From assembly GCA_032718475.1 (NCBI GenBank), contig JAUCBJ010009051.1, forward strand, positions 41,181-105,180: a stretch of 64,000 nt of DNA. The letters run 5' to 3'. The position numbers and the translations under genes are program-made. Positions 1 to 64,000 of this stretch are shown one piece after another. A model generated the notes under the pieces. It was given only the letters and a program-made list of their open reading frames with translations, searched no databases and was not told the DNA's origin. Every line of letters begins with the position of its first letter. The first letter of the stretch is position 1. This stretch comes from Nemertoderma westbladi. Taxonomy: Eukaryota > Animalia > Xenacoelomorpha.

Positions 1-272
1 GTAGTCAGCTGATTAACCGGGTTTTAAGTCAGCTGATTAACCGGGTTGGAAGTCAGCTGATTAACCGGGTTGGAAGTCAGCTGTTTAACCGGGTGGGATG
101 TCAGCTGATTAACCGGGTTGGAAGTCAGGTGAATAACCGGATTGGATGTCAGCTGATTAACCGGGTTGGAAGTCCGCTGATTAACAGGGTTTGAAGTCAG
201 CTGATTAACCGGGTTGGAAGTCCGCTGATTAACAGGGTTTGAAGTCAGCTGATTAATCGGGTTGGAAGTCAG
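1..272. repeat. 24-bp tandem repeat (GTCAGCTGATTAACCGGGTTGGAA), ~11 copies, runs off the window start
   Basis: Directly visible periodicity. Joins the 27-bp array through a shared GGAAGTCAG. Confidence 0.95.
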
Positions 273-3200
273 ACAACATAGGGAAGACAGAACCCAGGTA
301 TAACAGAGGGAAGTCAGAACCCAGGTATAACAGAGGGAAGTCAGAACCCAAGTATAACAGAGGGAAGTCAGAACCCAGGTACAACAGAGGGAAGTCAGAA
401 CCCAGGTACAACAGAGGGAAGTCAGAACCCAGGTACAACAGAGGGAAGTCAGAACCCAGGTACAACAGAGGGAAGTCAGAACCCAGGAATAATAGAGGGA
501 AGTCAGGTACAACAGAGGGAAGTCAGAACCCAGGTACAACAGAGGGAAGTCAGAACCGAGGTATAACAGAGGGAAGTCAGGTACAACAGAGGGAAGTCAG
601 AACCCAGAGACAACATAGGGAAGTCAGAACCCAGGTACAACAGAGGGAAGTCAGAACCCAAGTATAACAGAGGGAAGTCAGGTAGAACAGAGGGAAGTCA
701 GAACCAAGGTACAACATAGGGAAGTCAGAACCCAGGTATAACAGAGGGAAGTCAGAACCCAGGTATAACAGAGGAAGTCAGAACCCAGGTATAACAGAGG
801 GAAGTCAGAACCCAGGTACAACATAGGGAAGTCAGAACCCAGGTATAACAGAGGGAAGTCAGAACCCAGGTATAACAGAGGGAAGTCAGAACCCAGGTAC
901 AACAGAGGGAAGTCAGAACCCAGGTACAACAGAGAGAAGTCAGAACCCAGGTATAACAGAGGGAAGTCAGAACCCAGGTACAAAAGAGGGAAGTCAGAAC
1001 CCAGGTACAACAGAGGGAAGTCAGAACCCAGGTACAACAGAGGGAAGTCAGAACCCAGGTATAACAGAGGAAGTCAGAACCCAGGTATAACAGAGGGAAG
1101 TCAGAACCCAGGTATAACAGAGGGAAGTCAGAACCCAGGTACAACATAGGGAAGTCAGAACCCAGGTATAACAGAGGGAAGTCAGAACCCAGGTACAACA
1201 GAGGGAAGTCAGAACCCAGGTACAACAGAGGGAAGTCAGAACCCAGGTATAACAGAGGAAGTCAGAACCCAGGTACAACAGAGGGAAGTCAGAACCCAGG
1301 TACAACATAGGGAAGTCAGAACCCAGGTATAACAGAGGGAAGTCAGAACCCAGGTACAAAAGAGGGAAGTCAGAACCCAGGTACAACAGAGGGAAGTCAG
1401 AACCCAGGTACAACAGAGGGAAGTCAGAACCCAGGTATAACAGAGGAAGTCAGAACCCAGGTATAACAGAGGGAAGTCAGAACCCAGGTACAACATAGGG
1501 AAGTCAGAACTCAGGTATAACAGAGGGAAGTCAGAACCCAGGTATAACAGAGGGAAGTCAGAACCCAGGTACAACATAGGGAAGTCAGAACCCAGGTATA
1601 ACAGAGGGAAGTCAGAACCCAGGTACAACAGAGGGAAGTCAGAACCCAGGTACAACAGAGGGAAGTCAGAACCCAGGTACAACAGAGAGAAGTCAGAACC
1701 CAGGTACAACGGAGGGAAGTCAGAACCCAGGTATAACAGAGGGAAGTCAGAACCCAGGTATAACAGAGGGAAGTAAGAACTCAGGTATAACAGAGGGAAG
1801 TCAGAACCCAGGTATAACAGAGGGAAGTCAGAACCCAGGTACAACAGAGGGAAGTCAGAACTCAGGTACAACAGAGGGAAGTCAGAACCCAGGTATAACA
1901 TAGGGAAGTCAGAACCCAGGTACAACAGAGGGAAGTCAGAACCCAGGTACAACAGAGGGAAGTCAGAACCCAGGTACAACAGAGGGAAGTCAGAACTCAG
2001 GTACAACAGAGGGAAGTCAGAACCCAGATACAACAGAGGGAAGTCAGAACCCAGGTACAACAGAGGGAAGTCAGAACCCAGGTACAACAGAGGGAAGTCA
2101 GAACCCAGGTACAACAGAGGGAAGTCAGAACCCAGGTATAACAGAGGGAAGTCAGAACCCAGGTATAACAGAGGGAAGTCAGAACCCAGGTACAACAGAG
2201 GGAAGTCAAAACCCAGGTATAACAGAGGGAAGTCAGAACCCAGGTATAACAGAGGGAAGTCAGAACCCAGGTATAACAGAGGGAAGTCAGAACCCAGGTA
2301 AAACAGAGGGAAGTCAGAACCCAGGTATAACAGAGGGAAGTCAGAACCCAGGTATAACATAGGGAAGTCAGAACCCAGGTATAACAGAGGGAAGTTAGAA
2401 CCCAGGTATAACAGAGGGAAGTCAGAACCCAGGTATAACAGAGGGAAGTCAGAACCCAGGTACAACAGAGGGAAGTCAGAACCCAGGTATAAAAGAGGGA
2501 AGTCAGAACCCAGGTATAACAGAGGGAAGTCAAAACCCAGGTATAACAGAGGAAAGTCAGGTACAACAGAGGGAAGTCAGAACCCAGGTATAACAGAGGG
2601 AAGTCAGAACCCAGGTATAACAGAGGGAAGTCAGAACCCAGGTACAACATAGGGAAGTGAGAACCGAGGTATAACAGAGGAAGTCAGAACCCAGGTATAA
2701 CAGAGGGAAGTCAGAACCCAGGTATAACAGAGGGAAGTCAGAACCCAGGTATAACAGAGGGAAGTCAGAACCCAGGTACAACAGAGGGAAGTCAGAACCC
2801 AGGTACAACAGAGGGAAGTCAGAACCCAGGTACAACAGAGGGAAGTCAGAACCCAGGTATAACAGAGGGAAGTCAGGTACAACAGAGGGAAGTCAGAACC
2901 CAGGTATAACAGAGGGAAGTCAGAACCCAGGTACAACAGAAGGAAGTCAGAACCGAGGTATAACCGAGGGAAGTCAGAACCCAGGTATAACAGAGGGAAG
3001 TAAGAACCCAGGTATAACATAGGGAAGTCAGAACCCAGGTATAACAGAGGGAAGTCAGAACCCAGGTACAACAGAGGGAAGTCAGATACCAGGTACAACA
3101 TAGGGAAGTCAGAACCGAGGTATAACAGAGGGAAGTCAGAACTCAGATACAACAGAGGGAAGTCAGAACCCAGGTACAACAGAGGGAAGTCAGAACCCAG

Positions 3201-4296
3201 GTACAACAGAGGGAAGTCAGAACCCAGGTATAACAGAGGGAAGTCAGAAACCAGGTATAACAGAGGGAAGTCAGAACCCAGGTATAACAGAGGGAAGTCA
3301 GGTACAACAGAGGGAAGGCAGAACTCAGGTATAACAGAGGGAAGTCAGAACCCAGGTATAACAGAGGGAAGTCAGAACCCAGGTATAACAGAGGGAAGTC
3401 AGGTACAACAGAGAGAAGTCAGAACACAGGTATAACAGAGGGAAGTCAGAACCCAGGTATAACAGAGGGAAGTTAGAACCCAGGTATAACATAGGGAAGT
3501 CAGAACCCAGGTATAACAGAGGGAAGTCAGAACCCAGGTATAACAGAGGGAAGTCAGAACCCAGGTATAACAGAGGGAAGTCAGGTACAACAGAGGGAAG
3601 TCAGGTACAACAGAGAGAAGTCAGAACACAGGTATAACAGAGGGAAGTCAGAACCCAGGTATAACAGAGGGAAGTCAGAACCCAGGTATAACATAGGGAA
3701 GTCAGAACCCAGGTATAACAGAGGGAAGTCAGAACCCAGGTATAACAGAGGGAAGTCAGAACCCAGGTATAACAGAGGGAAGTCAGGTACAACAGAGGGA
3801 AGTCAGAACCCAGGTATAACAGAGGGAAGTCAGAACCCAGGTATAACAGAGGGAAGTCAGGTACAACAGAAAGAAGTCAGAACACAGGTATAACAGAGGG
3901 AAGTCAGAACCCAGGTATAACAGAGGGAAGTCAGAACCCAGGTATAACAGAGGGAAGTCAGGTACAACAGAGAGAAGTCAGAACACAGGTATAACAGAGG
4001 GAAGTCAGAACCCAGGTATAACAGAGGGAAGTCAGAACCCAGGTATAACAGAGGAAAGTCAGGTACAACAGAGGGAAGTCAGAACCCAGGTATAACAGAA
4101 GGAAGTCAGAACCCAGGTACAACAGAGGGAAGTCAGAACCCAGGTATAAAAGAGGGAAGTCAGAACCCAGGTACAACAGAGGGAAGTCATAAACCAGATA
4201 CAACAGAGGGAAGTCAGAACCCAGGTACAACAGAGGGAAGTCAGAACCCAGGTATAACAGAGGGAAGTCAGGTACAACAGAGGGAAGTCAGAACCC
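273..4296. repeat. 27-bp satellite (GAAGTCAGAACCCAGGTAYAACAGAGG), left block
   Basis: Visible tandem array with a 20-bp deletion variant (GTCAGGT) and 26-bp variants. Confidence 0.98.
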
Positions 4297-6278
4297 CCTA
4301 AACAATCAGATTTTTTGCAAAATTTTGAAAATACAATTTTATGTAATCTTAGGTCAGACTGTGAAATATATTTCTTAGGTGATTTTAATATCTGTTACCA
4401 TCACAAAGCATCCCCCATCTGTAAACAGTACCAAAGTATTTTAAATTTGTTTGGTTTAAAACAAATTATTCGAGATTCTACCAGAATTACCAGTAAAACT
4501 TCTACTTTACTAGATCACATCCTTTGTAATAATACCGATATTATTTCTCAATCTGGGGTTTTACCTATAGGTCTAAGCGATCATTTTATAGTTTTTTGCA
4601 CAAGAAAGACACAAAAATCTTTTTTCGGGGATCATAAAACAGTAACAGTTAGGTCTATGAAAAATTACAGCAAGGAACGCTTTTTAAGTTTGTTAGTTAA
4701 TTCTGACTGGGAACCCTGTTTTAAGGCCGCTTTGCGTACACTGTTTTTAAAGATATATTTTTAAAGGCACTTAATACTGTAGCACCAATTAAAGAAATTA
4801 GTCTTAAACAACGCACTGAGCCCTGGATGACCTCGGGAATTCTTAGTAATATCAGAGAAAGAGATAACTATTTGTATAAATTTAGGAAATACCGTGTTTT
4901 AGCTGATTATAATAATTACTGCAAATATAGAAACCTTGTCCAACGGGAAATAAAAAAAGCTAAATCTGAATATTTGTACAACAAAATAAGTGAGAATAAA
5001 GATAATCCTAAAAGTCTATGGTCTACCCTAAAATCTTTAGGTTATAAAAACCTCAAATCTAAATCGAATATTGTTCTGCAAGATAACGGTGAGCTGATTC
5101 ATGATCATACTCTAGTTAGTAATTTATTTAATAATTATTTTACTAATGTTGCCTCTAATTTAGTTAAGAAATTACCGTTATCAAGTAATAAATATAGTAT
5201 AGGGTCCGAAACTCTAAAAAATTTTTATTTAGAAAAGTTACAAAATTCAGAAAAGTTATTTTTAAAACCCGTTTCTGAGGATTTCGTTTTTAAAAATCTA
5301 CTTAGCCTATCAGCCTCAAAAAGTACCGGTCTAGATCTAATACCTGCCCGTTTTCTTAAGGATGGTGCTGAAGTACTTAAAGTGCCTATTACTTTTATTA
5401 TTAATTACTCTATCGTAGATAATGTAGTACCAGACGAACTGAAATTAGCTAAGGTTGTTCCTCTGTATAAAAAGAATAGTAAAGTAGAACCCTGTAATTA
5501 CAGACCTGTTAGTATCTTAAGTATTGTATCTAAAATTCTAGAACGTTCTGTTTTTCTACAGCTGGAGGCACATCTTAGTAGGCTAAATCTGATCTATGAA
5601 CTTCAGTCCGGTTTTCGTAAATCATATTCTACAGACACCTGCCTTATTAACTTAACTGATACAATTAGATGTAATAACGCAAAGGGTTTATATACCGGTA
5701 TGGTAATGTTGGACCTACAAAAGGCTTTCGATACTGTAGATCACGAAATTCTGCTTGGTAAGTTAGGCCTGATGGGTGTAGGTTCTATAGACTGGTTCAA
5801 GTCCTACCTGTCAGACAGAGGTCAAACTGTAGTCATTAGCAAATCGCTGTCTACTGTACAAGAGATTACCTGTGGTGTACCGCAAGGTAGTATATTAGGT
5901 CCTCTGCTTTTTGTATGCTATGTAAATGATATGATAAGTAGTATAGATCCCGATTTTAAACTCATTTTATATGCCGACGACAGTGCTCTTATTTTCTCTC
6001 ATAAAGATCCTATCCATATTTCCCAAAAGTTAAGTGCAGTTCTAGAATCCTGTAATGAGTGGTTGGTTGATAATAAGCTATCCATTCACTACGGTAAAAC
6101 TGAAAGTATTTTGTTTGGTTCCAAAAGAAAGTTAAAGAAGGTAACTAAGTTTGAAGTCACTAGTAATGGACATAAGATTGAAAATAAAAAGGAAGTTAAA
6201 TATTTAGGCGCCACATTGGATAACTGCTTATCAGGAGAAAGTACAGTGAAAAATATTTTCTCGAAAGTTAATCTATCT
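4297..6278 (+). mobile_element. Non-LTR retrotransposon fragment (CR1/L2-group-like APE+RT), truncated at both ends and frameshifted
   Basis: ORF 4315..4764 has APE motifs GDFN, LDHI and SDH. ORF 4827..6293 has RT motifs [27 protein letters not shown] and YADD. The ORF runs directly into satellite, with no 3' UTR or tail. Confidence 0.93.
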
Positions 6279-9200
6279 AGAACCCAGGTATAACAGAAGG
6301 AAGTCAGAACCCAGGTACAACAGAGGGAAGTCAGAACCCAGGTATAACAGAGGGAAGTCAGAACCCAGGTACAACAGAGGGAAGTCAGAACCCAGGTATA
6401 ACAGAGGGAAGTCAGGTACAACAGAGGGAAGTCAGAACCCAGGTATAACAGAAGGAAGTCAGAACCCAGGTACAACAGAGGGAAGTCAGAACCCAGGTAT
6501 AAAAGAGGGAAGTCAGAACCCAGGTATAACAGAGGGAAGTCAAAACCCAGGTATAACAGAGGAAAGTCAGGTACAACAGAGGGAAGTCAGAACCCAGGTA
6601 TAACAGAGGGAAGCCAGAACCCAGGTACAACAGAGGGAAGTCAGAACCCAGGTATAACAGAGGGAAGTCAGAACCCAGGTATAACAGAGGGCAGACAGAT
6701 ACCAGGTACAACATAGGGAAGTCAGAACCGAGGTATAACAGAGGGAAGTCAGAACTCAGGTACAACAGAGGGAAGTCAGAACCCAGGTATAACAGAGGGA
6801 AGTCAGAACCCAGGTATAACAGAGGGAAGTAAGAACTCAGGTATAACAGAGGGAAGTCAGGTACAACAGAGGGAAGTCAGAACCCAGGTATAACAGAGGA
6901 AAGTCAGGTACAACAGAGGGAAGTCAGGTACAACAAAGGGAAGTCAGAACCCAGGTATAACAGAGGGAAGTCAGAACCCGGGTACAACAGAGGGAAGTCA
7001 GAACCCAGGTATAACAGAGGGAAGTCAGGTACAACAGAGGGAAGGCAGAACACAGGTATAACAGAGGAAAGTCAGAACCCAGGTATAACATAGGGAAGTC
7101 AGAACCCAGGTATAACAGAGGGAAGTCAGGTACAACAGAGAGAAGTCAGAACACAGGTATAACAGAGGGAAGTCAGAACCCAGGTATAACAGAGGGAAGT
7201 TAGAACCCAGGAATAACAGAGAGAAGTCAGAACCCAGGTATAACAGAGGGAAGTCAGGTACAACAGAGAGAAGTCAGAACACAGGTATAACAGAGGGAAG
7301 TCAGAACCCAGGTATAACAGAGGGAAGTTAGAACCCAGGTATAACAGAGGGAAGTCAGAAACCAGGTATAACAGAGGGAAGTCAGAACCCAGGTATAACA
7401 GAGGGAAGTCAGGTACAACAGAGGGAAGGCAGAACTCAGGTATAACAGAGGGAAGTCAGAACCCAGGTATAACAGAGGGAAGTCAGAACCCAGGTATAAC
7501 AGAGGGAAGTCAGGTACAACAGAGAGAAGTCAGAACACAGGTATAACAGAGGGAAGTCAGAACCCAGGTATAACAGAGGGAAGTTAGAACCCAGGTATAA
7601 CATAGGGAAGTCAGAACCCAGGTATAACAGAGGGAAGTCAGAACCCAGGTATAACAGAGGGAAGTCAGAACCCAGGTATAACAGAGGGAAGTCAGGTACA
7701 ACAGAGGGAAGTCAGGTACAACAGAGAGAAGTCAGAACACAGGTATAACAGAGGGAAGTCAGAACCCAGGTATAACAGAGGGAAGTCAGAACCCAGGTAT
7801 AACATAGGGAAGTCAGAACCCAGGTATAACAGAGGGAAGTCAGAACCCAGGTATAACAGAGGGAAGTCAGAACCCAGGTATAACAGAGGGAAGTCAGGTA
7901 CAACAGAGGGAAGTCAGAACCCAGGTATAACAGAGGGAAGTCAGAACCCAGGTATAACAGAGGGAAGTCAGGTACAACAGAAAGAAGTCAGAACACAGGT
8001 ATAACAGAGGGAAGTCAGAACCCAGGTATAACAGAGGGAAGTCAGAACCCAGGTATAACAGAGGGAAGTCAGGTACAACAGAGAGAAGTCAGAACACAGG
8101 TATAACAGAGGGAAGTCAGAACCCAGGTATAACAGAGGGAAGTCAGAACCCAGGTATAACAGAGGGAAGTCAGGTACAACATAGGGAAGTCAGAACTCAG
8201 GTATAACAGAGGGAAGTCAGAACCCAGGTATAACAGAGGGAAGTCAGAACCCAGGTATAACAGAGGGAAGTCCGTTACAACAGAGAGAAGTCAGAACACA
8301 GGTATAACAGAGGGAAGTCAGAACCCAGGTATAACAGAGGGAAGTCAGAACCCAGGTATAACAGAGGGAAGTCAGGTACAACAGAGGGAAGTCAGAATCC
8401 AGGTACAACAGAGGGAAGTCAGAACCCAGGTATAACAGGGGGAAGTCAGAACCCAGGTACAACAGAGGGAAGTCAGATACCAGGTACAACATAGGGAAGT
8501 CAGAACCGAGGTATAACAGAGGGAAGTCAGAACTCAGGTACAACAGAGGGAAGTCAGAACCCAGGTACAACAGAGGGAAGTCAGAACCCAGGTACAACAG
8601 AGGGAAGTCAGAACCCAGGTATAACAGAGGGAAGTCAGGTACAACAGAGGGAAGTCAGAACCCAGGTATAACAGATGGAAGTCAGAACCCAGGTACAACA
8701 GAGGGAAGTCAGAACCCAGGTATAACAGAGGGAAGTCAGAACCCAGGTATAACAGAGGGAAGTCAGAACCCAGGTATAACAGAGGGAAGTCAGAACCCAG
8801 GAACAACAGAGGGAAGTCAGAACCCAGGTATAACAGAGGGAAGTCAGGTACAACAGAGGGAAGTCAGAACCCAGGTATAACAGAGGAAAGTCAGAACCCA
8901 GGTACAACAGAGGGAAGTCAGAACCCAGGTACAACAGAGGGAAGTCAGAACCCAGGTACAACAGAGGGAAGTCAGAACCCAGGTACAACAGAGGGAAGTC
9001 AGGTACAACAGAGGGAAGTCAGAACCCAGGTATAACAGAAGGAAGTCAGAACCCAGGTACAACAGAGGGAAGTCAGAACCCAGGTATAACAGAAGAAAGT
9101 CAGAACCCAGGTACAACAGAGGGAAGTCAGAACCCAGGTATAACAGAGGGAAGTCAGAACCCAGGTACAACAGAGGGAAGTCAGAAGCCAGGTATAACAG

Positions 9201-12200
9201 AGGGAAGTCAGAACCCAGGTACAACAGAGGGAAGTCAGAACCCAGGTACAACAGAGGGAAGTCAGAACCCAGGTATAACAGAGGGAAGTCAGAACCCAGG
9301 TACAACAGAGGGAAGTCAGAAGCCAGGTATAACAGAGGGAAGTCAGGTACAACAGAGGGAAGTCAGAACCCAGGTACAACAGAGGGAAGTCAGAACCCAG
9401 GTATAACAGAGGGAAGTCAGAACCCAGGTATAACAGAGGGAAGTCAGGTACAACAGAGGGAAGTCAGAACCCAGGTACAACAGAGGGAAGTCAGAACCCA
9501 GGTATAACAGAGGGAAGTCACAACCCAGGTACAACAGAGGGAAGTCAGAACCCAGGTATAACAGAGGGAAGTCAGGTACAACATAGGGCAGTCAGAACCC
9601 AGGTATAACAGAGGGAAGTCAGAACCCAGGTATAACAGAGGGAAGTCAGAACCCAGGTACAACAGAGGGAAGTCAGAACCGAGGTATAACCGAGGGAAGT
9701 CAGAACCCAGGTATAACAGAGGGAAGTCAGAACCCAGGTATAACAGAGGGAAGTCAGAACCCAGAAACAACAGAAGGAAGTCAGAACCCAGGTACAACTG
9801 AGGGAAGTCAGGTACAACATAGGGCAGTCAGAACCCAGGTGTAACAGAGGGAAGTCAGAACCCAGGTACGACAGAGGGAAGTCAGAACCCAGGTATAACA
9901 GAGGGAAGTCAGAACCCAGGTACAACATAGGGCAGTCAGAACCCAGGTGTAACAGAGGGAAGTCAGAACCCAGGTACGACAGAGGGAAGTCAGAACCCAG
10001 GTACAACAGAGGGAAGTCAGAACCCAGGTACAACAGAGGGAAGTCAGAACCCAGGTACAACAGAGGGAAGTCAGAACCCAGGTATAACAGAGGGAAGTCA
10101 GAACCCAGGTACAACATAGGGCAGTCAGAACCCAGGTGTAACAGAGGGAAGTCAGAACCCAGGTATAACAGAGGGAAGTTAGAACCCAGGTATAACAGAG
10201 GGAAGTCAGAACCCAGGTATAACAGAGGGAAGTCAGAACCCAGGTACAACATAGGGCAGTCAGAACCCAGGTGTAACAGAGGGAAGTCAGAACCCAGGTA
10301 TAACAGAGGGAAGTTAGAACCCAGGTATAACAGAGGGAAGTCAGAACCCAGGTATAACAGAGGGAAGTCAGAACCCAGGTACAACATAGGGCAGTCAGAA
10401 CCCAGGTGTAACAGAGGGAAGTCAGAACCCAGGTACGACAGAGGGAAGTCAGAACCCAGGTACAACAGAGGGAAGTCAGAACCCAGGTACAACAGAGGGA
10501 AGTCAGAACCCAGGTACAACAGAGGGAAGTCAGGTACAACAGAGGGAAGTCAGAACCCAGGTATAACAGAAGGAAGTCAGAACCCAGGTACAACAGAGGG
10601 AAGTCAGAACCCAGGTATAACAGATGAAAGTCAGAACCCAGGTACAACAGAGGGAAGTCAGAACCCAGGTATAACAGAGGGAAGTCAGAACCCAGGTACA
10701 ACAGAGGGAAGTCAGAAGCCAGGAATAACAGAGGGAAGTCAGAACCCAGGTACAACAGAGGGAAGTCAGAACCCAGGTACAACAGAGGGAAGTCAGAACC
10801 CAGGTATAACAGAGGGAAGTCAGAACCCAGGTACAACAGAGGGAAGTCAGAAGCCAGGTATAACAGAGGGAAGTCAGGTACAACAGAGGGAAGTCAGAAC
10901 CCAGGTACAACAGAGGGAAGTCAGAACCCAGGTATAACAGAGGGAAGTCAGAACCCAGGTATAACAGAGGGAAGTCAGGTACAACAGAGGGAAGTCAGAA
11001 CCCAGGTACAACAGAGGGAAGTCAGAACCCAGGTATAACAGAGGGAAGTCAGAACCCAGGTACAACAGAGGGAAGTCAGAACCCAGGTATAACAGAGGGA
11101 AGTCAGGTACAACATAGGGCAGTCAGAACCCAGGTATAACAGAGGGAAGTCAGAACCCAGGTATAACAGAGGGAAGTCAGAACCCAGGTACAACAGAGGG
11201 AAGTCAGAACCGAGGTATAACCGAGGGAAGTCAGAACCCAGGTATAACAGAGGGAAGTCAGAACCCAGGTATAACAGAGGGAAGTCAGAACCCAGGTACA
11301 ACAGAGGGAAGTCAGAACCCAGGTGTAACAGAGGGAAGTCAGAAGCCAGGTACAACAGAGGGCAGTTATAACTCAGGCACAACAGAGGGAAGTTAGAACC
11401 CAGGTACAACAGAGGGAAGTCAGAACCCAGGTGTAACAGAGGGAAGTCAGAACCCAGGTACAACAGAGGGAAGTCAGAACCCAGGTACAACAGAGGGAAG
11501 TCAGAACCCAGGTGTAACAGAGGGAAGTCAGAACCCAGGTACAACAGAGGGAAGTCAGAACCCAGGTACAACAGAGGGAAGTCAGGTACAACATAGGGCA
11601 GTCAGAACCCAGGTGTAACAGAGGGAAGTCAGAACCCAGGTACAACAGAGGGAAGTCAGAACCCAGGTACAACAGAGGGAAGTCAGAACCCAGGTATAAC
11701 AGAGGGAAGTCAGAACTCAGGTACAACTGAGGGAAGTCAGGTACAACATAGGGCAGTCAGAACCCAGGTGTAACAGAGGGAAGTCAGAACCCAGGTATAA
11801 CAGAGGGAAGTCAGGTACAACATAGGGCAGTCAGAACCCAGGTGTAACAGAGGGAAGTCAGAACCCAGGTACAACAGAGGGAAGTCAGAACCCAGGTACA
11901 ACAGAGGGAAGTCAGAACCCAGGTATAACAGAGGGAAGTCAGAACTCAGGTACAACTGAGGGAAGTCAGGTACAACATAGGGCAGTCAGAACCCAGGTGT
12001 AACAGAGGGAAGTCAGAACCCAGGTATAACAGAGGGAAGTCAGGTACAACATAGGGCAGTCAGAACCCAGGTGTAACAGAGGGAAGTCAGAACCCAGGTA
12101 CAACAGAGGGAAGTCAGAACCCAGGTACAACAGAGGGAAGTCAGAACCCAGGTATAACAGAGGGAAGTCAGAACTCAGGTACAACTGAGGGAAGTCAGGT

Positions 12201-12666
12201 ACAACATAGGGCAGTCAGAACCCAGGTGTAACAGAGGGAAGTCAGAACCCAGGTATAACAGAGGGAAGTCAGGTACAACATAGGGCAGTCAGAACCCAGG
12301 TGTAACAGAGGGAAGTCAGAACTCAGGTACAACTGAGGGAAGTCAGGTACAACATAAGGCAGTCAGAACCCAGGTGTAACAGAGGGAAGTCAGAACCCAG
12401 GTATAACAGAGGGAAGTCAGGTACAACATAGGGCAGTCAGAACCCAGGTGTAACAGAGGGAAGTCAGAACACAGGTATAACAGAGGGAAGTCAGAACCCA
12501 GGTATAACAGAGGGAAGTCAGAACCCAGGTACAACAGAGGGAAGTCAGAACACAGGTATAACAGAGGGAAGTCAGAACCCAGGTACAACAGAGGGAAGTC
12601 AGAACCCAGGTATAACAGAGGGAAGTCAGAACCCAGGTGTAAAAGAGGGAAGTCAGGTACAACATA
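6279..12666. repeat. 27-bp satellite, right block
   Basis: Same unit resumes after the LINE. Higher-order blocks of ~229 bp are visible at 11.7-12.2 kb (identical 72-aa pseudo-ORFs at 11737 and 11966). Confidence 0.98.
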
Positions 12667-13791: not shown

Positions 13792-15638
<1,847 letters not shown>

Positions 15639-16233: not shown

Positions 16234-16452
<219 letters not shown>

Positions 16453-36799: not shown

Positions 36800-36970
36800 C
36801 TAAAAACAAAAAATAGAAAAAACATGCATTATGGGTTGATAATAATTATACTTGTGCGTATAAATAAGATGATGGGTAAAGGTTAAATAAATAAATTGAA
36901 ACTGAAACAACTAACGGTACGGTACATTATGTTTATTATAAGTAACAGTAAGTCCGTTAACCGAAAAGGT

Positions 36971-44400: not shown

Positions 44401-44576
44401 GGTCTGTATATTACACCTAACACTAAGGACTTATTGTTGGATTTTTTAATTTGCATCCATTTATTATGAATTCCCGACACAGTCAAGTCGTCTCGTTCCG
44501 TAAAGGTTAGCGTATCCTTAATGTAAATTCCCACACCCCAACCGGAACCTGAGGAACGTCCCTCTGGTCTGTCTCT
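41466..44576 (-). mobile_element. CR1/L2-group (Crack/Daphne-like, tentative) LINE, 5'-truncated, with intact 3' UTR and (TTAAAC)n tail
   Basis: APE motifs (YRPP, GDFN, LDHI) in 44010..44534. RT motifs (YRPIS, QFGFR, DLKKAFD, GTPQGSVLSP, FADD, HLYNTR) in 41887..44040. AATAAA at 41495-41490 followed by TTAAAC repeats. GGTCAG is present at both junctions. Confidence 0.94.
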
Positions 44577-53500: not shown

Positions 53501-56500
53501 TAGTAAAGGGAAGGAAGGGTCAGGGTTGAGTGAACGCCAATAGTAAAGGAAAGGAAGGGTCAGGGTTGAGTGAACGCCAATAGTAAAGGGAAGGAAGGGT
53601 CAGGGTTGAGTGAACGCCAATAGTAAAGGGAAGGAAGGGTCAGGGTTGGGTGAACGCCAATAGAAAAGGGAAGGAAGGGTCAGGGTTGAGTGAACGCCAA
53701 TAGTAAAGGGAAGGAAGGGTCAGGGTTGAGTGAACGCCAATAGAAAAGGGAAGGAAGGGTCAGGGTTGGGTGAACGCCAATAGAAAAGGGAAGGAAGGGT
53801 CAGGGTTGAGTGAACGCCAATAGTAAAGGGAAGGAAGGGTCAGGGTTGAGTGAACGCCAATAGTAAAGGGAAGGAAGGGTCAGGGTCAGGGTTGAGTGAA
53901 CGCCAATAGTAAAGGGAAGGAAGGGTCAGGGTTGAGTGAACGCCAATAGTAAAGGGAAGGAAGGGTCAGGGTTGAGTGAACGCCAATAGAAAAGGGAAGG
54001 AAGGGTCAGGGTCAGGGTTGAGTGAACGCCAATAGTAAAGGGAAGGAAGGGTCAGGGTTGGGTGAACGCCAATAGAAAAGGGAAGGAAGGGTCAGGGTTG
54101 AGTGAACGCCAATAGTAAAGGGAAGGAAGGGTCAGGGTTGGGTGAACGCCAATAGAAAAGGGAAGGAAGGGTCAGGGTTGAGTGAACGCCAATAGTAAAG
54201 GGAAGGAAGGGTCAGGGTTGAGTGAACGCCAATAGAAAAGGGAAGGAAGGGTTAGGGTTGAGTGAACGCCAATAGAAAAGGGAAGGAAGGGTCAGGGTTG
54301 GGTGAACGCCAATAGAAAAGGGAAGGAAGGGTCAGGGTTGAGTGAACGCCAATAGTAAAGGGAAGGAAGGGTCAGGGTTGAGTGAACGCCAATAGAAAAG
54401 GGAAGGAAGTGTCAGGGTTGGGTGAACGCCAATAGAAAAGGGAAGGAAGGGTCAGGGTTGAGTGAACGCCAATAGAAAAGGGAAGGAAGGGTCAGGGTTG
54501 AGTGAACGCCAATAGAAAAGGGAAGGAAGGGTCAGGGTTGAGTGAACGCCAATAGAAAAGGGAAGGAAGGGTCAGGGTTGAGTGAACGCCAATAGAAAAG
54601 GGAAGGAAGGGTCAGGGTTGAGTGAACGCCAATAGTAAAGGGAAGGAAGGGTCAGGGTTGAGTGAACGCCAATAGTAAAGGGAAGGAAGGGTCAGGGTTG
54701 AGTGAACGCCAATAGAAAAGGGAAGGAAGGGTCAGGGTTGGGTGAACGCCAATAGAAAAGGGAAGGAAGGGTCAGGGTTGAGTGAACGCCAATAGAGAAG
54801 GGAAGGAAGGGTCAGGGTTGAGTGAACGCCAATAGAAAAGGGAAGGAAGGGTCAGGGTTGAGTGAACGCCAATAGAAAAGGGAAGGAAGGGTCAGGGTTG
54901 AGTGAACGCCAATAGAAAAGGGAAGGAAGGGTCAGGGTTGAGTGAACGCCAATAGTAAAGGGAAGGAAGGGTCAGGGTTGAGTGAACGCCAATAGTAAAG
55001 GGAAGGAAGGGCCAGGGTTGATAGTAAAGGGAAGGAAGGGTCGATAGTAAAGGGAAGGAAGGGTCAGGGTTGAGTGAACGCCAATAGTAAAGGGAAGGAA
55101 GGGTCAGGGTTGAGTGAACGCCAACAGTAAAGGGAAGGAAGGGTCAGGGTTGATAGTAAAGGGAAGGAAGGGTCGATAGTAAAGGGAAGGAAGGGTCAGG
55201 GTTGGGTGAACGCCAATAGAAAAGGGAAGGAAGGGTCAGGGTTGAGTGAACGCCAATAGTAAAGGGAAGGAAGGGTCAGGGTTGAGTGAACGCCAATAGT
55301 AAAGGGAAGGAAGGGTCAGGGTTGAGTGAACGCCAATAGTAAAGGGAAGGAAGGGTCAGGGTTGGGTGAACGCCAATAGAAAAGGGAAGGAAGGGTCAGG
55401 GTTGAGTGAACGCCAATAGTAAAGGGAAGGAAGGGTCAGGGTTGAGTGAACGCCAATAGAAAAGGGAAGGAAGGGTCAGGGTTGAGTGAACGCCAATAGA
55501 AAAGGGAAGGAAGGGTCAGGGTTGAGTGAACGCCAATAGAAAAGGGAAGGAAGGGTCAGGGTTGAGTGAACGCCAATAGAAAAGGGAAGGAAGGGTCAGG
55601 GTTGAGTGAACGCCAATAGAAAAGGGAAGGAAGGGTCAGGGTTGAGTGAACGCCAATAGTAAAGGGAAGGAAGGGTCAGGGTTGAGTGAACGCCAATAGT
55701 AAAGGGAAGGAAGGGTCAGGGTTGAGTGAACGCCAATAGTAAAGGAAAGGAAGTGTCAGGGTTGAGTGAACGCCAATAGTAAAGGGAAGGAAGGGTCAGG
55801 GTTGATAGTAAAGGGAAGGAAGGGTCAGGGTTGAGTGAACGCCAACAGTAAAGGGAAGGAAGGGTCAGGGTTGAGTGAACGCCAATAGTAAAGGGAAGGA
55901 AGGGTCAGGGTTGAGTGAACGCCAATAGTAAAGGGAAGGAAGGGTCAGGGTTGGGTGAACGCCAATAGAAAAGGGAAGGAAGGGTCAGGGTTGAGTGAAC
56001 GCCAATAGTAAAGGGAAGGAAGGGTCAGGGTTGGGTGAACGCCAATAGAAAAGGGAATGAAGGGTCAGGGTTGAGTGAACGCCAATAGTAAAGGGAAGGA
56101 AGGGTCAGGGTTGAGTGAACGCCAATAGAAAAGGGAAGGAAGGGTCAGGGTTGAGTGAACGCCAATAGTAAAGGGAAGGAAGGGTCAGGGTTGAGTGAAC
56201 GCCAATAGTAAAGGAAAGGAAGGGTCAGGGTTGAGTGAACGCCAATAGTAAAGGGAAGGAAGGGTCAGGGTTGAGTGAACGCCAATAGTAAAGGGAAGGA
56301 AGGGTCAGGGTTGGGTGAACGCCAATAGAAAAGGGAAGGAAGGGTCAGGGTTGAGTGAACGCCAATAGTAAAGGGAAGGAAGGGTCAGGGTTGAGTGAAC
56401 GCCAATAGAAAAGGGAAGGAAGGGTCAGGGTTGGGTGAACGCCAATAGAAAAGGGAAGGAAGGGTCAGGGTTGAGTGAACGCCAATAGTAAAGGGAAGGA

Positions 56501-59500
56501 AGGGTCAGGGTTGAGTGAACGCCAATAGTAAAGGGAAGGAAGGGTCAGGGTCAGGGTTGAGTGAACGCCAATAGTAAAGGGAAGGAAGGGTCAGGGTTGA
56601 GTGAACGCCAATAGTAAAGGGAAGGAAGGGTCAGGGTTGAGTGAACGCCAATAGAAAAGGGAAGGAAGGGTCAGGGTCAGGGTTGAGTGAACGCCAATAG
56701 TAAAGGGAAGGAAGGGTCAGGGTTGGGTGAACGCCAATAGAAAAGGGAAGGAAGGGTCAGGGTTGAGTGAACGCCAATAGTAAAGGGAAGGAAGGGTCAG
56801 GGTTGGGTGAACGCCAATAGAAAAGGGAAGGAAGGGTCAGGGTTGAGTGAACGCCAATAGTAAAGGGAAGGAAGGGTCAGGGTTGAGTGAACGCCAATAG
56901 AAAAGGGAAGGAAGGGTTAGGGTTGAGTGAACGCCAATAGAAAAGGGAAGGAAGGGTCAGGGTTGGGTGAACGCCAATAGAAAAGGGAAGGAAGGGTCAG
57001 GGTTGAGTGAACGCCAATAGTAAAGGGAAGGAAGGGTCAGGGTTGAGTGAACGCCAATAGAAAAGGGAAGGAAGTGTCAGGGTTGGGTGAACGCCAATAG
57101 AAAAGGGAAGGAAGGGTCAGGGTTGAGTGAACGCCAATAGAAAAGGGAAGGAAGGGTCAGGGTTGAGTGAACGCCAATAGAAAAGGGAAGGAAGGGTCAG
57201 GGTTGAGTGAACGCCAATAGAAAAGGGAAGGAAGGGTCAGGGTTGAGTGAACGCCAATAGAAAAGGGAAGGAAGGGTCAGGGTTGAGTGAACGCCAATAG
57301 TAAAGGGAAGGAAGGGTCAGGGTTGAGTGAACGCCAATAGTAAAGGGAAGGAAGGGTCAGGGTTGAGTGAACGCCAATAGAAAAGGGAAGGAAGGGTCAG
57401 GGTTGGGTGAACGCCAATAGAAAAGGGAAGGAAGGGTCAGGGTTGAGTGAACGCCAATAGAGAAGGGAAGGAAGGGTCAGGGTTGAGTGAACGCCAATAG
57501 AAAAGGGAAGGAAGGGTCAGGGTTGAGTGAACGCCAATAGAAAAGGGAAGGAAGGGTCAGGGTTGAGTGAACGCCAATAGAAAAGGGAAGGAAGGGTCAG
57601 GGTTGAGTGAACGCCAATAGTAAAGGAAAGGAAGGGTCAGGGTTGAGTGAACGCCAATAGTAAAGGGAAGGAAGGGTCAGGGTTGAGTGAACGCCAATAG
57701 AAAAGGGAAGGAAGGGTCAGGGTTGAGTGAACGCCAATAGAAAAGGGAAGGAAGGGTCAGGGTTGAGTGAACGCCAATAGAAAAGGGAAGGAAGGGTCAG
57801 GGTTGAGTGAACGCCAATAGAAAAGGGAAGGAAGGGTCAGGGTTGAGTGAACGCCAATAGAAAAGGGAAGGAAGGGTCAGGGTTGAGTGAACGCCAATAG
57901 TAAAGGAAAGGAAGGGTCAGGGTTGGGTGAACGCCAATAGTAAAGGGGAGGAAGGGTCAGGGTTGAGTGAACGCCAATAGAAAAGGGAAGGAAGGGTCAG
58001 GGTTGAGTGAACGCCAATAGAAAAGGGAAGGAAGGGTCAGGGTTGAGTGAACGCCAATAGAAAAGGGAAGGAAGGGTCAGGGTTGAGTGAACGCCAATAG
58101 TAAAGGAAAGGAAGGGTCAGGGTTGGGTGAACGCCAATAGTAAAGGGAAGGAAGGGTCAGGGTTGAGTGAACGCCAATAGAAAAGGGAAGGAAGGGTCAG
58201 GGTTGAGTGAACGCCAATAGAAAAGGGAAGGAAGGGTCAGGGTTGAGTGAACGCCAATAGTAAAGGGAAGGAAGGGTCAGGGTTGAGTGAACGCCAATAG
58301 AAAAGGGAAGGAAGGGTCAGGGTTGAGTGAACGCCAATAGAAAAGGGAAGGAAGGGTCAGGGTTGAGTGAACGCCAATAGAAAAGGGAAGGAAGGGTCAG
58401 GGTTGAGTGAACGCCAATAGTAAAGGGAAGGAAGGGTCAGGGTTGAGTGAACGCCAATAGAAAAGGGAAGGAAGGGTCAGGGTTGGGTGAACGCCAATAG
58501 TAAAGGGAAGGAAGGGTCAGGGTTGAGTGAACGCCAATAGTAAAGGGAAGGAAGGGTCAGGGTTGAGTGAACGCCAATAGTAAAGGGAAGGAAGGGTCAG
58601 GGTTGAGTGAACGCCAATAGTAAAGGGAAGGAAGGGTCAGGGTTGAGTGAACGCCAATAGAAAAGGGAAGGAAGGGTCAGGGTTGAGTGAACGCCAATAG
58701 TAAAGGGAAGGAAGGGTCAGGGTTGAGTGAACGCCAATAGAAAAGGGAAGGAAGGGTCAGGGTTGAGTGAACGCCAATAGAAAAGGGAAGGAAGGGTCAG
58801 GGTTGAGTGAACGCCAATAGAAAAGGGAAGGAAGGGTCAGGGTTGAGTGAACGCCAATAGAAAAGGGAAGGAAGGGTCAGGGTTGAGTGAACGCCAATAG
58901 TAAAGGGAAGGAAGGGTCAGGGTTGAGTGAACGCCAATAGAAAAGGGAAGGAAGGGTCAGGGTTGAGTGAACGCCAATAGAAAAGGGAAGGAAGGGTCAG
59001 GGTTGAGTGAATGCCAATAGAAAAGGGAAGGAAGGGTCAGGGTTGAGTGAACGCCAATAGAAAAGGGAAGGAAGGGTCAGGGTTGAGTGAACGCCAATAG
59101 AAAAGGGAAGGAAGGGTCAGGGTTGAGTGAACGCCAATAGTAAAGGGAAGGAAGGGTCAGGGTTGAGTGAACGCCAACAGTAAAGGGAAGGAAGGGTCAG
59201 GGTTGAGTGAACGCCAATAGTAAAGGGAAGGAAGGGTCAGGGTTGATAGTAAAGGGAAGCAAGGGTCGATAGTAAAGGGAAGGAAGGGTCAGGGTTGAGT
59301 GAACGCCAATAGTAAAGGGAAGGAAGGGTCAGGGTTGAGTGAACGCCAACAGTAAAGGGAAGGAAGGGTCAGGGTTGAGTGAACGCCAATAGTAAAGGGA
59401 AGGAAGGGTCAGGGTTGAGTGAACGCCAATAGTAAAGGGAAGGAAGGGTCAGGGTTGAGTGAACGCCAATAGGAAAGGGAAGGAAGGGTCAGGGTTGAAT

Positions 59501-62500
59501 GAACGCCAATAGAAAAGGGAAGGAAGGGTCGATAGTAAAGGGAAGGAAGGGTCGATAGTAAAGGGAAGGAAGGGTCAGGGTTGAGTGAACGCCAATAGAA
59601 AAGGGAAGGAAGGGTCAGGGTTGAGTGAACGCCAATAGAAAAGGGAAGGAAGGGTCAGGGTTGAGTGAACGCCAATAGAAAAGGGAAGGAAGGGTCAGGG
59701 TTGGGTGAACGCCAATAGAAAAGGGAAGGAAGGGTCAGGGTTGAGTGAACGCCAATAGTAAAGGGAAGGAAGGGTCAGGGTTGAGTGAACGCCAATAGAA
59801 AAGGGAAGGAAGTGTCAGGGTTGGGTGAACGCCAATAGAAAAGGGAAGGAAGGGTCAGGGTTGAGTGAACGCCAATAGAAAAGGGAAGGAAGGGTCAGGG
59901 TTGAGTGAACGCCAATAGAAAAGGGAAGGAAGGGTCAGGGTTGAGTGAACGCCAATAGAAAAGGGAAGGAAGGGTCAGGGTTGAGTGAACGCCAATAGAA
60001 AAGGGAAGGAAGGGTCAGGGTTGAGTGAACGCCAATAGAAAAGGGAAGGAAGGGTCAGGGTTGAGTGAACGCCAATAGAAAAGGGAAGGAAGGGTCAGGG
60101 TTGAGTGAACGCCAATAGAAAAGGGAAGGAAGGGTCAGGGTTGAGTGAACGCCAATAGTAAAGGGAAGGAAGGGTCAGGGTTGAGTGAACGCCAATAGAA
60201 AAGGGAAGGAAGGGTCAGGGTTGAGTGAACGCCAATAGAAAAGGGAAGGAAGGGTCAGGGTTGAGTGAACGCCAATAGAAAAGGGAAGGAAGGGTCAGGG
60301 TTGAGTGAACGCCAATAGAAAAGGGAAGGAAGGGTCAGGGTTGAGTGAACGCCAATAGAAAAGGGAAGGAAGGGTCAGGGTTGAGTGAACGCCAATAGAA
60401 AAGGGAAGGAAGGGTCAGGGTTGAGTGAACGCCAATAGTAAAGGGAAGGAAGGGTCAGGGTTGAGTGAACGCCAATAGTAAAGGGAAGGAAGGGTCAGGG
60501 TTGAGTGAACGCCAATAGAAAAGGGAAGGAAGGGTCAGGGTTGAGTGAACGCCAATAGAAAAGGGAAGGAAGGGTCAGGGTTGAGTGAACGCCAATAGAA
60601 AAGGGAAGGAAGGGTCAGGGTTGAGTGAACGCCAATAGTAAAGGAAAGGAAGGGTCAGGGTTGGGTGAACGCCAATAGTAAAGGGAAGGAAGGGTCAGGG
60701 TTGAGTGAACGCCAATAGAAAAGGGAAGGAAGGGTCAGGGTTGAGTGAACGCCAATAGAAAAGGGAAGGAAGGGTCAGGGTTGAGTGAACGCCAATAGTA
60801 AAGGAAAGGAAGGGTCAGGGTTGAGTGAACGCCAATAGAAAAGGGAAGGAAGGGTCAGGGTTGAGTGAACGCCAATAGAAAAGGGAAGGAAGGGTCAGGG
60901 TTGAGTGAACGCCAATAGAAAAGGGAAGGAAGGGTCAGGGTTGAGTGAACGCCAACAGTAAAGGGAAGGAAGGGTCAGGGTTGAGTGAACGCCAATAGAA
61001 AAGGGAAGGAAGGGTCAGGGTTGGGTGAACGCCAATAGTAAAGGGAAGGAAGGGTCAGGGTTGAGTGAACGCCAATAGTAAAGGGAAGGAAGGGTCAGGG
61101 TTGAGTGAACGCCAATAGTAAAGGGAAGGAAGGGTCAGGGTTGAGTGAACGCCAATAGTAAAGGGAAGGAAGGGTCAGGGTTGAGTGAACGACAATAGAA
61201 AAGGGAAGGAAGGGTCAGGGTTGAGTGAACGCCAATAGTAAAGGGAAGGAAGGGTCAGGGTTGAGTGAACGCCAATAGAAAAGGGAAGGAAGGGTCAGGT
61301 TTGAGTGAACGCCAATAGAAAAGGGAAGGAAGGGTCAGGGTTGAGTGAACGCCAATAGAAAAGGGAAGGAAGGGTCAGGGTTGAGTGAACGCCAATAGAA
61401 AAGGGAAGGAAGGGTCAGGGTTGAGTGAACGCCAATAGTAAAGGGAAGGAAGGGTCAGGGTTGAGTGAACGTCAATAGAAAAGGGAAGGAAGGGTCAGGG
61501 TTGAGTGAACGCCAATAGAAAAGGGAAGGAAGGGTCAGGGTTGAGTGAATGCCAATAGAAAAGGGAAGGAAGGGTCAGGGTTGAGTGAACGCCAATAGAA
61601 AAGGGAAGGAAGGGTCAGGGTTGAGTGAACGCCAATAGAAAAGGGAAGGAAGGGTCAGGGTTGAGTGAACGCCAATAGTAAAGGGAAGGAAGGGTCAGGG
61701 TTGAGTGAACGCCAACAGTAAAGGGAAGGAAGGGTCAGGGTTGAGTGAACGCCAATAGTAAAGGGAAGGAAGGGTCAGGGTTGATAGTAAAGGGAAGCAA
61801 GGGTCGATAGTAAAGGGAAGGAAGGGTCAGGGTTGAGTGAACGCCAATAGTAAAGGGAAGGAAGGGTCAGGGTTGAGTGAACGCCAACAGTAAAGGGAAG
61901 GAAGGGTCAGGGTTGAGTGAACGCCAATAGTAAAGGGAAGGAAGGGTCAGGGTTGAGTGAACGCCAATAGTAAAGGGAAGGAAGGGTCAGGGTTGAGTGA
62001 ACGCCAATAGGAAAGGGAAGGAAGGGTCAGGGTTGAATGAACGCCAATAGAAAAGGGAAGGAAGGGTCGATAGTAAAGGGAAGGAAGGGTCGATAGTAAA
62101 GGGAAGGAAGGGTCAGGGTTGAGTGAACGCCAATAGAAAAGGGAAGGAAGGGTCAGGGTTGAGTGAACGCCAATAGTAAAGGAAAGGAAGGGTCAGGGTT
62201 GAGTGAACGCCAATAGAAAAGGGAAGGAAGGGTCAGGGTTGAGTGAACGCCAATAGTAAAGGGAAGGAAGGGTCAGGGTTGAGTGAACGCCAATAGAAAA
62301 GGGAAGGAAGGGTCAGGGTTGAGTGAACGCCAATAGTAAAGGAAAGGAAGGGTCAGGGTTGAGTGAACGCCAATAGAAAAGGGAAGGAAGGGTCAGGGTT
62401 GAGTGAACGCCAATAGTAAAGGGAAGGAAGGGTCAGGGTTGAGTGAACGCCAATAGTAAAGGGAAGGAAGGGTCAGGGTTGAGTGAACGCCAATAGTAAA

Positions 62501-64000
62501 GGGAAGGAAGGGTCAGGGTTGAGTGAACGCCAACAGTAAAGGGAAGGAAGGGTCAGGGTTGAGTGAACGCCAATAGAAAAGGGAAGGAAGGGTCAGGGTT
62601 GAGTGAACGCCAATAGAAAAGGGAAGGAAGGGTAGGTAGGGTTGAGTGAACGCCAATAGAAAAGGGAAGGAAGGGTCAGGGTTGGGTGAACGCCAATAGA
62701 AAAGGGAAGGAAGGGTCAGGGTTGAGTGAACGCCAATAGTAAAGGGAAGGAAGGGTCAGGGTTGAGTGAACGCCAATAGAAAAGGGAAGGAAGGGTCAGG
62801 GTTGAGTGAACGCCAATAGTAAAGGGAAGGAAGGGTCAGGGTTGAGTGAACGCCAATAGTAAAGGGAAGGAAGGGTCAGGGTTGAGTGAACGCCAATAGT
62901 AAAGGGAAGGAAGGGTCAGGGTTGAGTGAACGCCAATAGTAAAGGGAAGGAAGGGTCAGGGTTGAGTGAACGCCAATAGAAAAGGAAAGGAAGGGTCAGG
63001 GTTGAGTGAACGCCAATAGAAAAGGAAAGGAAGGGTCAGGGTTGAGTGAACGCCAATAGTAAAGGGAAGGAAGGGTCAGGGTTGGGTGAACGCCAATAGT
63101 AAAGGGAAGGAAGGGTCAGGGTTGAGTGAACGCCAATAGTAAAGGGAAGGAAGGGTCAGGGTTGAGTGAACGCCAATAGTAAAGGGAAGGAAGGGTCAGG
63201 GTTGAGTGAACGCCAATAGAAAAGGGAAGGAAGGGTCAGGGTTGAGTGAACGCCAATAGTAAAGGGAAGGAAGGGTCAGGGTCGAGTGAACGCCAATAGT
63301 AAAGGGAAGGAAGGGTCAGGGTTGGGTGAACGCCAATAGAAAAGGGAAGGAAGGGTCAGGGTTGAGTGAACGCCAATAGTAAAGGGAAGGAAGGGTCAGG
63401 GTTGGGTGAACGCCAATAGAAAGGGAAGGAAGGGTCAGGGTTGAGTGAACGCCAATAGTAAAGGGAAGGAAGGGTCAGGGTTGAGTGAACGCCAATAGTA
63501 AAGGGAAGGAAGGGTCAGGGTTGGGTGAACGCCAATAGAAAAGGGAAGGAAGGGTCAGGGTTGAGTGAACGCCAATAGTAAAGGGAAGGAAGGGTCAGGG
63601 TTGAGTGAACGCCAATAGTAAAGGGAAGGAAGGGTTAGGGTTGAGTGAACGCCAATAGTAAAGGGAAGGAAGGGTCAGGGTTGAGTGAACGCCAATAGTA
63701 AAGGGAAGGAAGGGTTAGGGTTGAGTGAACGCCAATAGTAAAGGGAAGGAAGGGCCAGGGTTGATAGTAAAGGGAAGGAAGGGTCAGGGTTGAGTGAACG
63801 CCAATAGTAAAGGGAAGGAAGGGCCAGGGTTGATAGTAAAGGGAAGGAAGGGTCGATAGTAAAGGGAAGGAAGGGTCAGGGTTGAGTGAACGCCAATAGT
63901 AAAGGGAAGGAAGGGTCAGGGTTGAGTGAACGCCAACAGTAAAGGGAAGGAAGGGTCAGGGTTGATAGTAAAGGGAAGGAAGGGTCGATAGTAAAGGGAA
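44577..64000. repeat. 40-bp satellite, main block (>19 kb, runs off the window end)
   Basis: Visible tandem array with shortened variants (GGTTGATAG, GGTCGATAG) and multi-kb higher-order duplications. Confidence 0.99.

Follow-up and report, generated by a model that had tools for sequence, protein, structure and literature searches.

The window analyzed here is a 64-kb stretch (64,000 nt) of the genome of Nemertoderma westbladi (GCA_032718475.1, contig JAUCBJ010009051.1, positions 41,181-105,180 of the forward strand), which carries on its minus strand part of a gene for CK2-alpha; all coordinates below are positions in this window. Mapping with Tandem Repeats Finder and a k-mer map of the window assigns 46,163 nt, or 72% of its length, to tandem arrays. 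In our judgment, the large introns of this gene have probably been filled by intron-specific arrays, two of which arose from the 5′ splice-site regions of their own introns, through local duplication and unequal exchange, and these arrays have been tolerated by way of splicing from the first donor.

Exons and tandem arrays of the CK2-alpha gene

The four exons within the window, designated A to D in gene order, sum to 528 nt and have AG and GT at all boundaries (table 1). All 65 positions of exon C align with CK2-alpha chains (65/65, E 1e-40), with 94-97% identity to the CK2-alpha of most animals. Exon B aligns with CK2-alpha residues 106-142 (E 7.6e-16), which immediately precede residues 143-207 of exon C, and both exon C and exon D match the Pfam model Pkinase. 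The introns, again in gene order, measure >27.2 kb, 6,895 nt, 13,239 nt, 619 nt, and >15.5 kb, with a 100-N gap (28420-28519) lying within the 13,239-nt intron B-C and the 20-bp array that it contains. This map, with its AG/GT boundaries, bears out the 528 coding nucleotides and the five intron sizes given in a first-pass annotation that had been made from the letters of the window alone.

The 51/56-bp array of intron A-B is a reiteration of the end of exon A. On the gene strand, its unit is composed of the last 43 nt of the exon, the donor 8-mer, and either 0 or 5 extra bases; the array begins within exon A, taking in its last 43 nt, and copy 1, which is the exon itself, crosses from exon into intron. 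The splice signal recurs along the array, the donor being present in every unit, as the exact 8-mer in 74 of the 82 copies (the real exon end included) and with its GT in 78 of 82. Ten copies precede an inserted long interspersed nuclear element (LINE) and 72 follow it, and the copies are spaced at 56 nt (46 times), 51 nt (33 times), or 50 nt (once). Copies 1 and 2 are identical across 51 nt, and most of the others differ at one synonymous position; units with variant donors recur at spacings of 377 and 209 nt. Among the exons, extra copies exist in the window only for the last 43 nt of exon A, together with the first intron bases; there are none for exons B, C, and D.

The array of the next intron begins at the donor of exon B, with perfect repetition of a 20-bp unit from intron position +3. 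The authentic donor is GTAAGT, whereas the units bear the weaker GTAAAG (612 occurrences vs 2 of GTAAGT among 342 units parsed), and these copies therefore carry a weakened splice signal. With its start at intron position +1 to +3, the 20-bp array includes no clear exon sequence. The placement of two arrays at donor sites in the first-pass annotation is thus confirmed. Two of about 10 array ends fall within 3 nt of one of the 8 splice junctions, for which our own arithmetic gives a chance of ~3e-5 under random placement, and arrays abut two of the four donors and none of the four acceptors.

The 51/56-bp array is bordered on its 3′ side by an inverted partial unit, which pairs with the last pseudo-donor copy and makes up 34 of the ~94 nt of intron A-B that are neither array nor LINE. 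The predicted fold of this region (29845-29935, minus strand) is a hairpin of 28 bp with almost perfect pairing (-44.1 kcal/mol, z -10.65). The hairpin is a head-to-head duplication located ~55 nt upstream of the exon B acceptor.

Altogether, the arrays belong to six families, each confined to one intron and with all units in one orientation. No pair of units from different families scores above the shuffle maximum, the only such pair being the 27-bp unit and its own 20-nt deletion variant, and the similarity of the 24-bp to the 27-bp unit is borderline against shuffles. The description of a different satellite family in each large intron accordingly stands: the families are unrelated beyond shuffles, with one intron each. 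Seed copies of the 24-, 27-, 60-, and 20-bp units scoring above shuffles were not found in the window's unique DNA. The 40-bp unit has a marginal seed match inside a LINE frame (score 20 vs a shuffle maximum of 17), and a second copy of the proximal flank of this array was not found within the window. The local origin that had been proposed for the arrays fits to different degrees. It holds for the 51/56-bp array, whose units copy the end of exon A with its donor, and at least in rough terms for the 20-bp array, which starts at a donor; the evidence for the 40-bp array is rough.

Traces of growth in blocks are visible inside the arrays. In the 40-bp array, variant sub-blocks containing short units of 29 and 23 nt (50240-63900) recur at 2,538 and 2,665 nt, which suggests that blocks at the kb scale were duplicated within the array. 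A lag-identity search for higher-order repeats was uninformative, owing to indel drift. Similar recurrences were observed in the 27-bp array at 229 and 1,531 nt.

Table 1. Exons, tandem arrays, and retroelements of the CK2-alpha locus (positions in the window; RT, reverse transcriptase)
Feature	Position	Strand	Remarks
CK2-alpha exon A	36698-36799	-	102 nt; last 43 nt and donor seed the 51/56-bp array
CK2-alpha exon B	29692-29802	-	111 nt; residues 106-142, human CK2-alpha numbering
CK2-alpha exon C	16258-16452	-	195 nt; residues 143-207
CK2-alpha exon D	15519-15638	-	120 nt; Pfam Pkinase match
51/56-bp array, copies 1-10	36187-36741	-	Copy 1 is the real end of exon A, with the authentic donor at 36697
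51/56-bp array, other 72 copies	29897-33761	-	Stops 94 nt short of the exon B acceptor
Inverted partial 51/56-bp unit	29856-29889	+	34 nt at the 3′ end of the array; pairs with the last pseudo-donor copy
20-bp array, main part	23184-29691	-	Begins at the exon B donor; contains the N gap 28420-28519
20-bp array, distal part	21851-22388	-	A 795-nt insert (22389-23183) lies between it and the main part
40-bp array, proximal part	37500-41465	-	Ends ~700 nt upstream of the exon A acceptor
40-bp array, distal part	44577-64000+	-	Continues past the window edge; array >26 kb
60-bp array, 13 units	13008-13791	-	99% identity; LINE in sense orientation directly 5′ of it
27-bp array with 20-nt deletion-variant units	275-12664	-	Split by the LINE at 4297-6278
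24-bp array	3-272	-	At the window edge; has a 9-mer in common with the 27-bp unit
LINE, endonuclease and RT frames	33762-36186	+	Splits one 51/56-bp unit; antisense to the gene
LINE, endonuclease and RT	41466-44576	-	Inside the 40-bp array; 3′ end with 6-bp microsatellite
LINE fragment, endonuclease and RT	4297-6278	+	Inside the 27-bp array; 7-nt direct repeat at both ends
LINE, 5′-truncated, RT	13792-15490	-	Sense; starts ~30 nt after the exon D donor
BEL/Pao pol frame, 1,187 aa	17728-21291	+	Intron B-C; Peptidase_A17, Integrase_H2C2, DUF5641

Transcript, read depth, and inserted elements

Read evidence was taken from the contigs of four public runs, here X1 to X4, which were compared with two short stretches of the window; the record of X4 does not state its library type. 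One X4 contig (785 nt, depth 1,478) lacks introns and includes exons C, B, and A and an upstream exon contiguously. It covers exon B (29691-29803) and exon A (36698-36801) with 0 differences each, the variants of copy 1 being present, and its junctions lie at 36698/29802 (A-B) and 29692/16452 (B-C). The end left loose at 29691 corresponds to window positions 16419-16451 in exon C, and the other end of the contig enters an upstream exon outside the window. In X4, there is no depth over the unique intron sequence adjoining exon A (36805-37000). Given that the exons are joined in a contig and the intron is without depth, this contig has the properties of a spliced transcript in which the first donor of either array has been used, such that the mature RNA, in the form that contigs can reveal, takes the most upstream authentic site.

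The coding consequences of the downstream copies are in keeping with this choice. Use of donor 2 of the 51/56-bp array would shift the reading frame (56 nt), and use of any donor after it would take in an in-frame stop codon at 36638-36640. It is likely that the arrays are tolerated because splicing picks the first donor. Exon B and its acceptor region are without cover in X1-X3, which is uninformative because conserved genes are filtered there, and no RNA run was listed as containing the exon C-D stretch.

Whether the arrays belong to this locus was estimated from the depth of 31-mers in the read sets relative to their copies in the window, for the 51/56-, 20-, and 40-bp arrays. A 535-nt contig over 36689-37223, with 0 differences in X1 and X2, provides the single-copy depths, 37.9 (X1) and 26.8 (X2). 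For the 51/56-bp array, an X2 contig has a depth of 954, equivalent to 35.6 copies, vs a mean of 32.8 window occurrences of the same 31-mers, in keeping with a single locus. In the case of the 20-bp array, exact-match contigs of X3 have depths of 2,000-2,361 over 31-mers that are present 118-156 times, or 16-17 per copy; the low-copy depth of X3 is 16-22, and the X3 depth of the 20-bp array fits this locus alone. Metagenome scans with exact consensus strings of 32 nt (20-bp array) and 36 nt (40-bp array) gave 0 matches each.

In addition to the arrays, the locus contains five retroelement fragments identified by Pfam models, four from LINEs (RVT_1, Exo_endo_phos) and one BEL/Pao pol (table 1). 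The LINEs that are lodged inside array units indicate that the arrays are older than these insertions and not brand new. Among the three array-inserted LINEs with long open frames, one more ends in a 3-bp microsatellite tail. Long terminal repeats were not detected flanking the BEL/Pao frame, and its relatives among the 120 matches listed are 32-38% identical (best 36-38%), the named ones being from cnidarians, a clam, and spiders. The GC content, measured in 2-kb windows, is 0.34-0.50.

Several smaller repeats were also recorded. A 161-bp tandem repeat of ~3 copies with 85-86% identity (16931-17439) lies between the exon C acceptor and the BEL/Pao frame. The 795-nt insert that splits the 20-bp array (22389-23183) has its left junction supported by an X1 contig. 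Between the 40-bp array and exon A lies a dispersed repeat (37150-37400) with a summed X1 depth of up to 1,910 vs the single-copy 37.9, and it is adjoined by a long C-run/T-run tract (37399-37431) at which reads appear cut.

Origin of the arrays

We infer a course of events composed of a junction-spanning duplication, array growth, a barrier at exons, and the survival of donor-spanning duplications. The initial duplication would have run across the boundary between the exon and an ancestral intron that was short, and it would have been neutral, with the upstream copy retaining exon and donor and the downstream copy turning intronic. Arrays would then have enlarged by slippage and unequal exchange, a step to which the recurrence of blocks of 4-7 units and of kb-scale blocks may be ascribed. 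Exons would act as barriers, with selection removing whatever alters them, and because growth would halt at exons through this selection, each intron would come to have its own family. Finally, the first donor would be chosen by 5′-to-3′ scanning, as has been experimentally shown for human F7 (PMC1557585). A donor-spanning duplication would be the sole exon-touching kind to survive, because the mRNA is unchanged if the upstream donor is used. A 51-nt duplication would often span the junction if the ancestral intron was only ~100 nt, and we take the ~94 nt of intron A-B that are neither array nor LINE as a sign of such an intron.

Several observations weigh against this reading. The only evidence for locus privacy is k-mer depth. 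At the 20-bp consensus (29624-29689), X2 gives 14,000/128 = 109 per copy against a single-copy depth of 26.8, about 4-fold too much; the summed depth of the 20-bp repeat in X1 likewise exceeds the window's copies, and in one X2 contig the repeat continues into sequence that the window lacks, which could come from other loci, from DNA hidden in the N gap, or from a longer allele. The ~4-fold difference between X2 and X3 at this consensus may reflect a difference in copy number between individuals or library bias, and it is inseparable from the latter given that X1 and X3, which come from one sample, also differ. The depth of the 40-bp array is library-dependent, with only 0.9 per window copy in X3, far below single-copy, and with summed depths of ~1,030 (X1) and ~2,600 (X2) copy equivalents vs at least 589 window units, a rough excess of ~1.7-4.4 times. 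In all four runs, contigs of about single-copy depth match 37449-37517, which comprises the flank and the first 40-bp unit, at ~92-95% and have other sequence on both sides; these may represent a related copy elsewhere. With regard to splicing, the X4 contig may, formally, still be a processed retrocopy, and contigs cannot reveal rare isoforms. The asymmetry between donors and acceptors is not predicted by a neutral model, although the numbers are tiny. Lastly, with length polymorphism a defining trait of the "sequence stuttering" described in chicken introns (see below), the assignment of these arrays to it is probable rather than certain, and the context differs from that in chicken, with its GC content of 34-50% and its five retroelement fragments.

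The contigs with the flank and one 40-bp unit may also be an unexpanded paralog or allele, and they hint that the 40-bp array grew from a single pre-existing unit. The view that the units are private to this locus holds in part: the depth of the 51/56-bp array fits one locus, that of the 20-bp array is within 1-4 times the window copies, and the estimate for the 40-bp array is rough.

These same contigs are among the reasons for weighing a different origin, in which the 24-, 27-, 40-, and 60-bp arrays are dispersed or transposon-borne satellites that landed in introns and then expanded. We consider this unlikely, even though in all four runs low-depth contigs place one 40-bp-like unit between other flanks, the proximal flank of the 40-bp array adjoins the dispersed repeat with its high depth, and none of the four units has a local seed in the window's unique DNA. 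Transposon-carried satellite-like arrays are reported from the oyster (PMC7492417), and the 60-bp array adjoins the 3′ end of a LINE, starting ~146 nt past the stop of the sense-strand RT frame. The first-pass annotation had gone further and described this array as a copy of the LINE end. The LINE is present as one copy in the window, however, and the 60-bp unit has no second copy in that LINE or in the window's unique DNA; without a template, such copying cannot be shown, and we do not retain the claim. The depth of the 40-bp repeat also speaks against dispersed satellites, given that its sum in X1 and X2 is a small multiple of the units of an array that the window truncates, as do the single orientation and single intron of each family and the lack of mutual similarity among families.

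An origin of the kind favored in the first-pass annotation is somewhat less probable still. It invokes a lineage-specific process of breakage, coupled to transcription or splicing, that amplifies 20-60 bp near splice signals, with the products then filtered by splicing compatibility. The occurrence of donor-seeded arrays in two consecutive introns would suit such a process, as would the abutment of arrays to two of four donors vs none of four acceptors, but the coincidence with donors needs no special mechanism if junction-spanning duplications are the survivors in a ~100-nt intron; donor-spanning duplication in a short intron would account for the arrays without coupled breakage.

The first-pass annotation also described two arrays that mimic a branch point followed by a pyrimidine tract. 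Read in the sense direction, both the 27- and the 40-bp unit indeed have CTGAC with 8 or more pyrimidines after it and lack AG, and the 24-bp unit, likewise with CTGAC, pyrimidines, and no sense AG, is similar. We are cautious in reading mimicry into this motif, however, given that the pattern was defined post hoc and that composition-preserving shuffles contain it in 2.6% (27-bp) and 8.2% (40-bp) of cases in strict form and in 13% and 42% in loose form; in addition, the four real acceptor tracts of the gene are T-rich, whereas the units are C-rich. The motif is thus real, and its interpretation as a branch point is suggestive at most. The sense strand of the 40-bp array contains 0 AG in 23,390 nt vs ~319 expected on composition, AG being the sole dinucleotide missing from the unit. 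This absence is explained by low unit diversity: the 547 forty-nt units comprise 26 distinct sequences, with none of 10 AG-creating types seen vs 19 of 110 others (P ~0.18). For the 27-bp array, the corresponding numbers are 2 of 8 AG-creating substitution types vs 35 of 73 others. The tests for AG depletion are not significant, and the proposed filtering of arrays by splicing compatibility is not upheld.

It is highly improbable that the arrays, or their sizes, are artefacts of long-read assembly. The N gap inside the 20-bp array invites this suspicion, as does position 37486, at which every covering contig in all four runs has G and the window has A. Against it, the read sets of two other studies hold the units at tens to thousands of times single-copy depth, and the contig over the junction between exon A and its array is found in those independent reads with 0 differences. 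The point where the 20-bp array meets the insert at 22389 is contained in an X1 contig, and the LINEs inside units, one of them with direct repeats at both ends, would be hard to obtain by misassembly. Least credible of all is a function of the arrays, as tandem U1-binding sites that guard a long intron from premature cleavage or as a means of adjusting the time of transcription or the dosage of CK2-alpha. In its favor, 78 strong donors that are almost identical persist, with the first two copies identical to the exon and a stable predicted hairpin masking the last pseudo-donor, but high identity is expected from homogenization alone, the other arrays have no such signal, and the published cases are treated as instability and not as function (PMC12954441).

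Relation to intronic repeats of other animals

The arrays of the CK2-alpha gene resemble, in many respects, the "sequence stuttering" of chicken dot-chromosome genes, in which each intron contains one or a few locally expanded motifs that are isolated by exons (Hron et al. 2026, PMC12954441). In the accompanying "exon stuttering", an exon edge is copied into the intron together with its donor or acceptor, in 1-44 copies (median 4) and over spans of up to 23.5 kb (PMC12954441). The chicken regions are there characterized as GC-rich and free of interspersed repeats, with imperfect repeats of highly polymorphic length (PMC12954441). Stuttering, described in 2026 from GC-rich dot chromosomes, is thought to be absent from vertebrates other than birds, and the work that we found in the literature on "sequence stuttering" with introns concerns birds. 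The likeness consists of intron-confined motifs of tens of bases, unaltered exons, and a donor copied into the intron, and the N. westbladi introns are mostly filled by motif blocks that are intron-confined and mutually different (72% array, six families). The locus differs from chicken in its homogeneous satellites, its 82 exon-end copies, its 40-bp array of >26 kb, and its non-bird host; nor is its context GC-rich and poor in interspersed repeats, which we regard as a trait of the chicken setting rather than of the pattern.

Two other systems share the reiteration of a splice site. In the "mirage" minisatellites of lancelet (Adh3 and the globins BflGb6 and BflGb9), repeats with units of 10-160 bp span the exon-intron boundary (PMC3087553). 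Many units retain a splice signal, regular splicing is undisturbed, and turnover occurs by unequal exchange (PMC3087553). Units are few in the lancelet genes as there described (3-6 in globins), vs 82 in the CK2-alpha array. Human donor-reiterating minisatellites include the 37-bp variable number tandem repeat in IVS7 of F7 and those of the interferon-inducible gene 6-16, CBS, LMNB2, and PDGF (Borensztajn et al. 2006, PMC1557585). In the F7 type, the first monomer spans the boundary, an identical donor is reiterated, and the most upstream one is used, a behavior explained by 5′-to-3′ scanning (PMC1557585). The human arrays given there have 5-25 pseudo-sites, with the next two sites also used in 6-16 and CBS (PMC1557585), in comparison with 77 GT-bearing pseudo-sites in the 51/56-bp array.

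The Y fertility genes of Drosophila offer a more distant comparison. Their megabase introns contain simple 5-bp satellites common to introns and genes, and the genes are testis-specific and Y-linked (Fingerhut et al. 2019, PMC6508621). In both cases, exons are a tiny fraction of the locus and intronic tandem repeats must be transcribed through. The N. westbladi units, in contrast, are complex, 20-60 bp long, and specific to an intron, and they lie in a housekeeping kinase gene, so that the locus does not conform to the Drosophila Y type.

Based on these comparisons, the lineage-specific character and novelty that the first-pass annotation had assigned to the process are not supported, given that the same pattern has been published for chicken (PMC12954441), lancelet (PMC3087553), and human (PMC1557585). 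The locus adds a large example to the pattern known from these genomes, and it stands out by its size, by donor-seeded arrays in two introns in a row, by the essential nature of the gene that carries them, and by a context that is neither GC-rich nor devoid of transposons. A wider generalization would make stuttering a general animal process that is biased to 5′ splice sites, in which strong donors of highly transcribed genes are hotspots of tandem duplication, every intron of an essential housekeeping gene can be inflated to tens of kb, and the 77 pseudo-donors remain silent; we give this little credence.

For genome annotation, the locus illustrates that such arrays conceal small exons and yield many false matches to exon ends. 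It also extends stuttering to an animal locus of moderate GC content that bears transposons, which speaks against the idea that GC content or G-quadruplex stress is required as a cause. Finally, the gene constitutes a natural and extreme test of splice-site choice: its single authentic donor precedes 77 copies that bear GT and have the same exonic surroundings.

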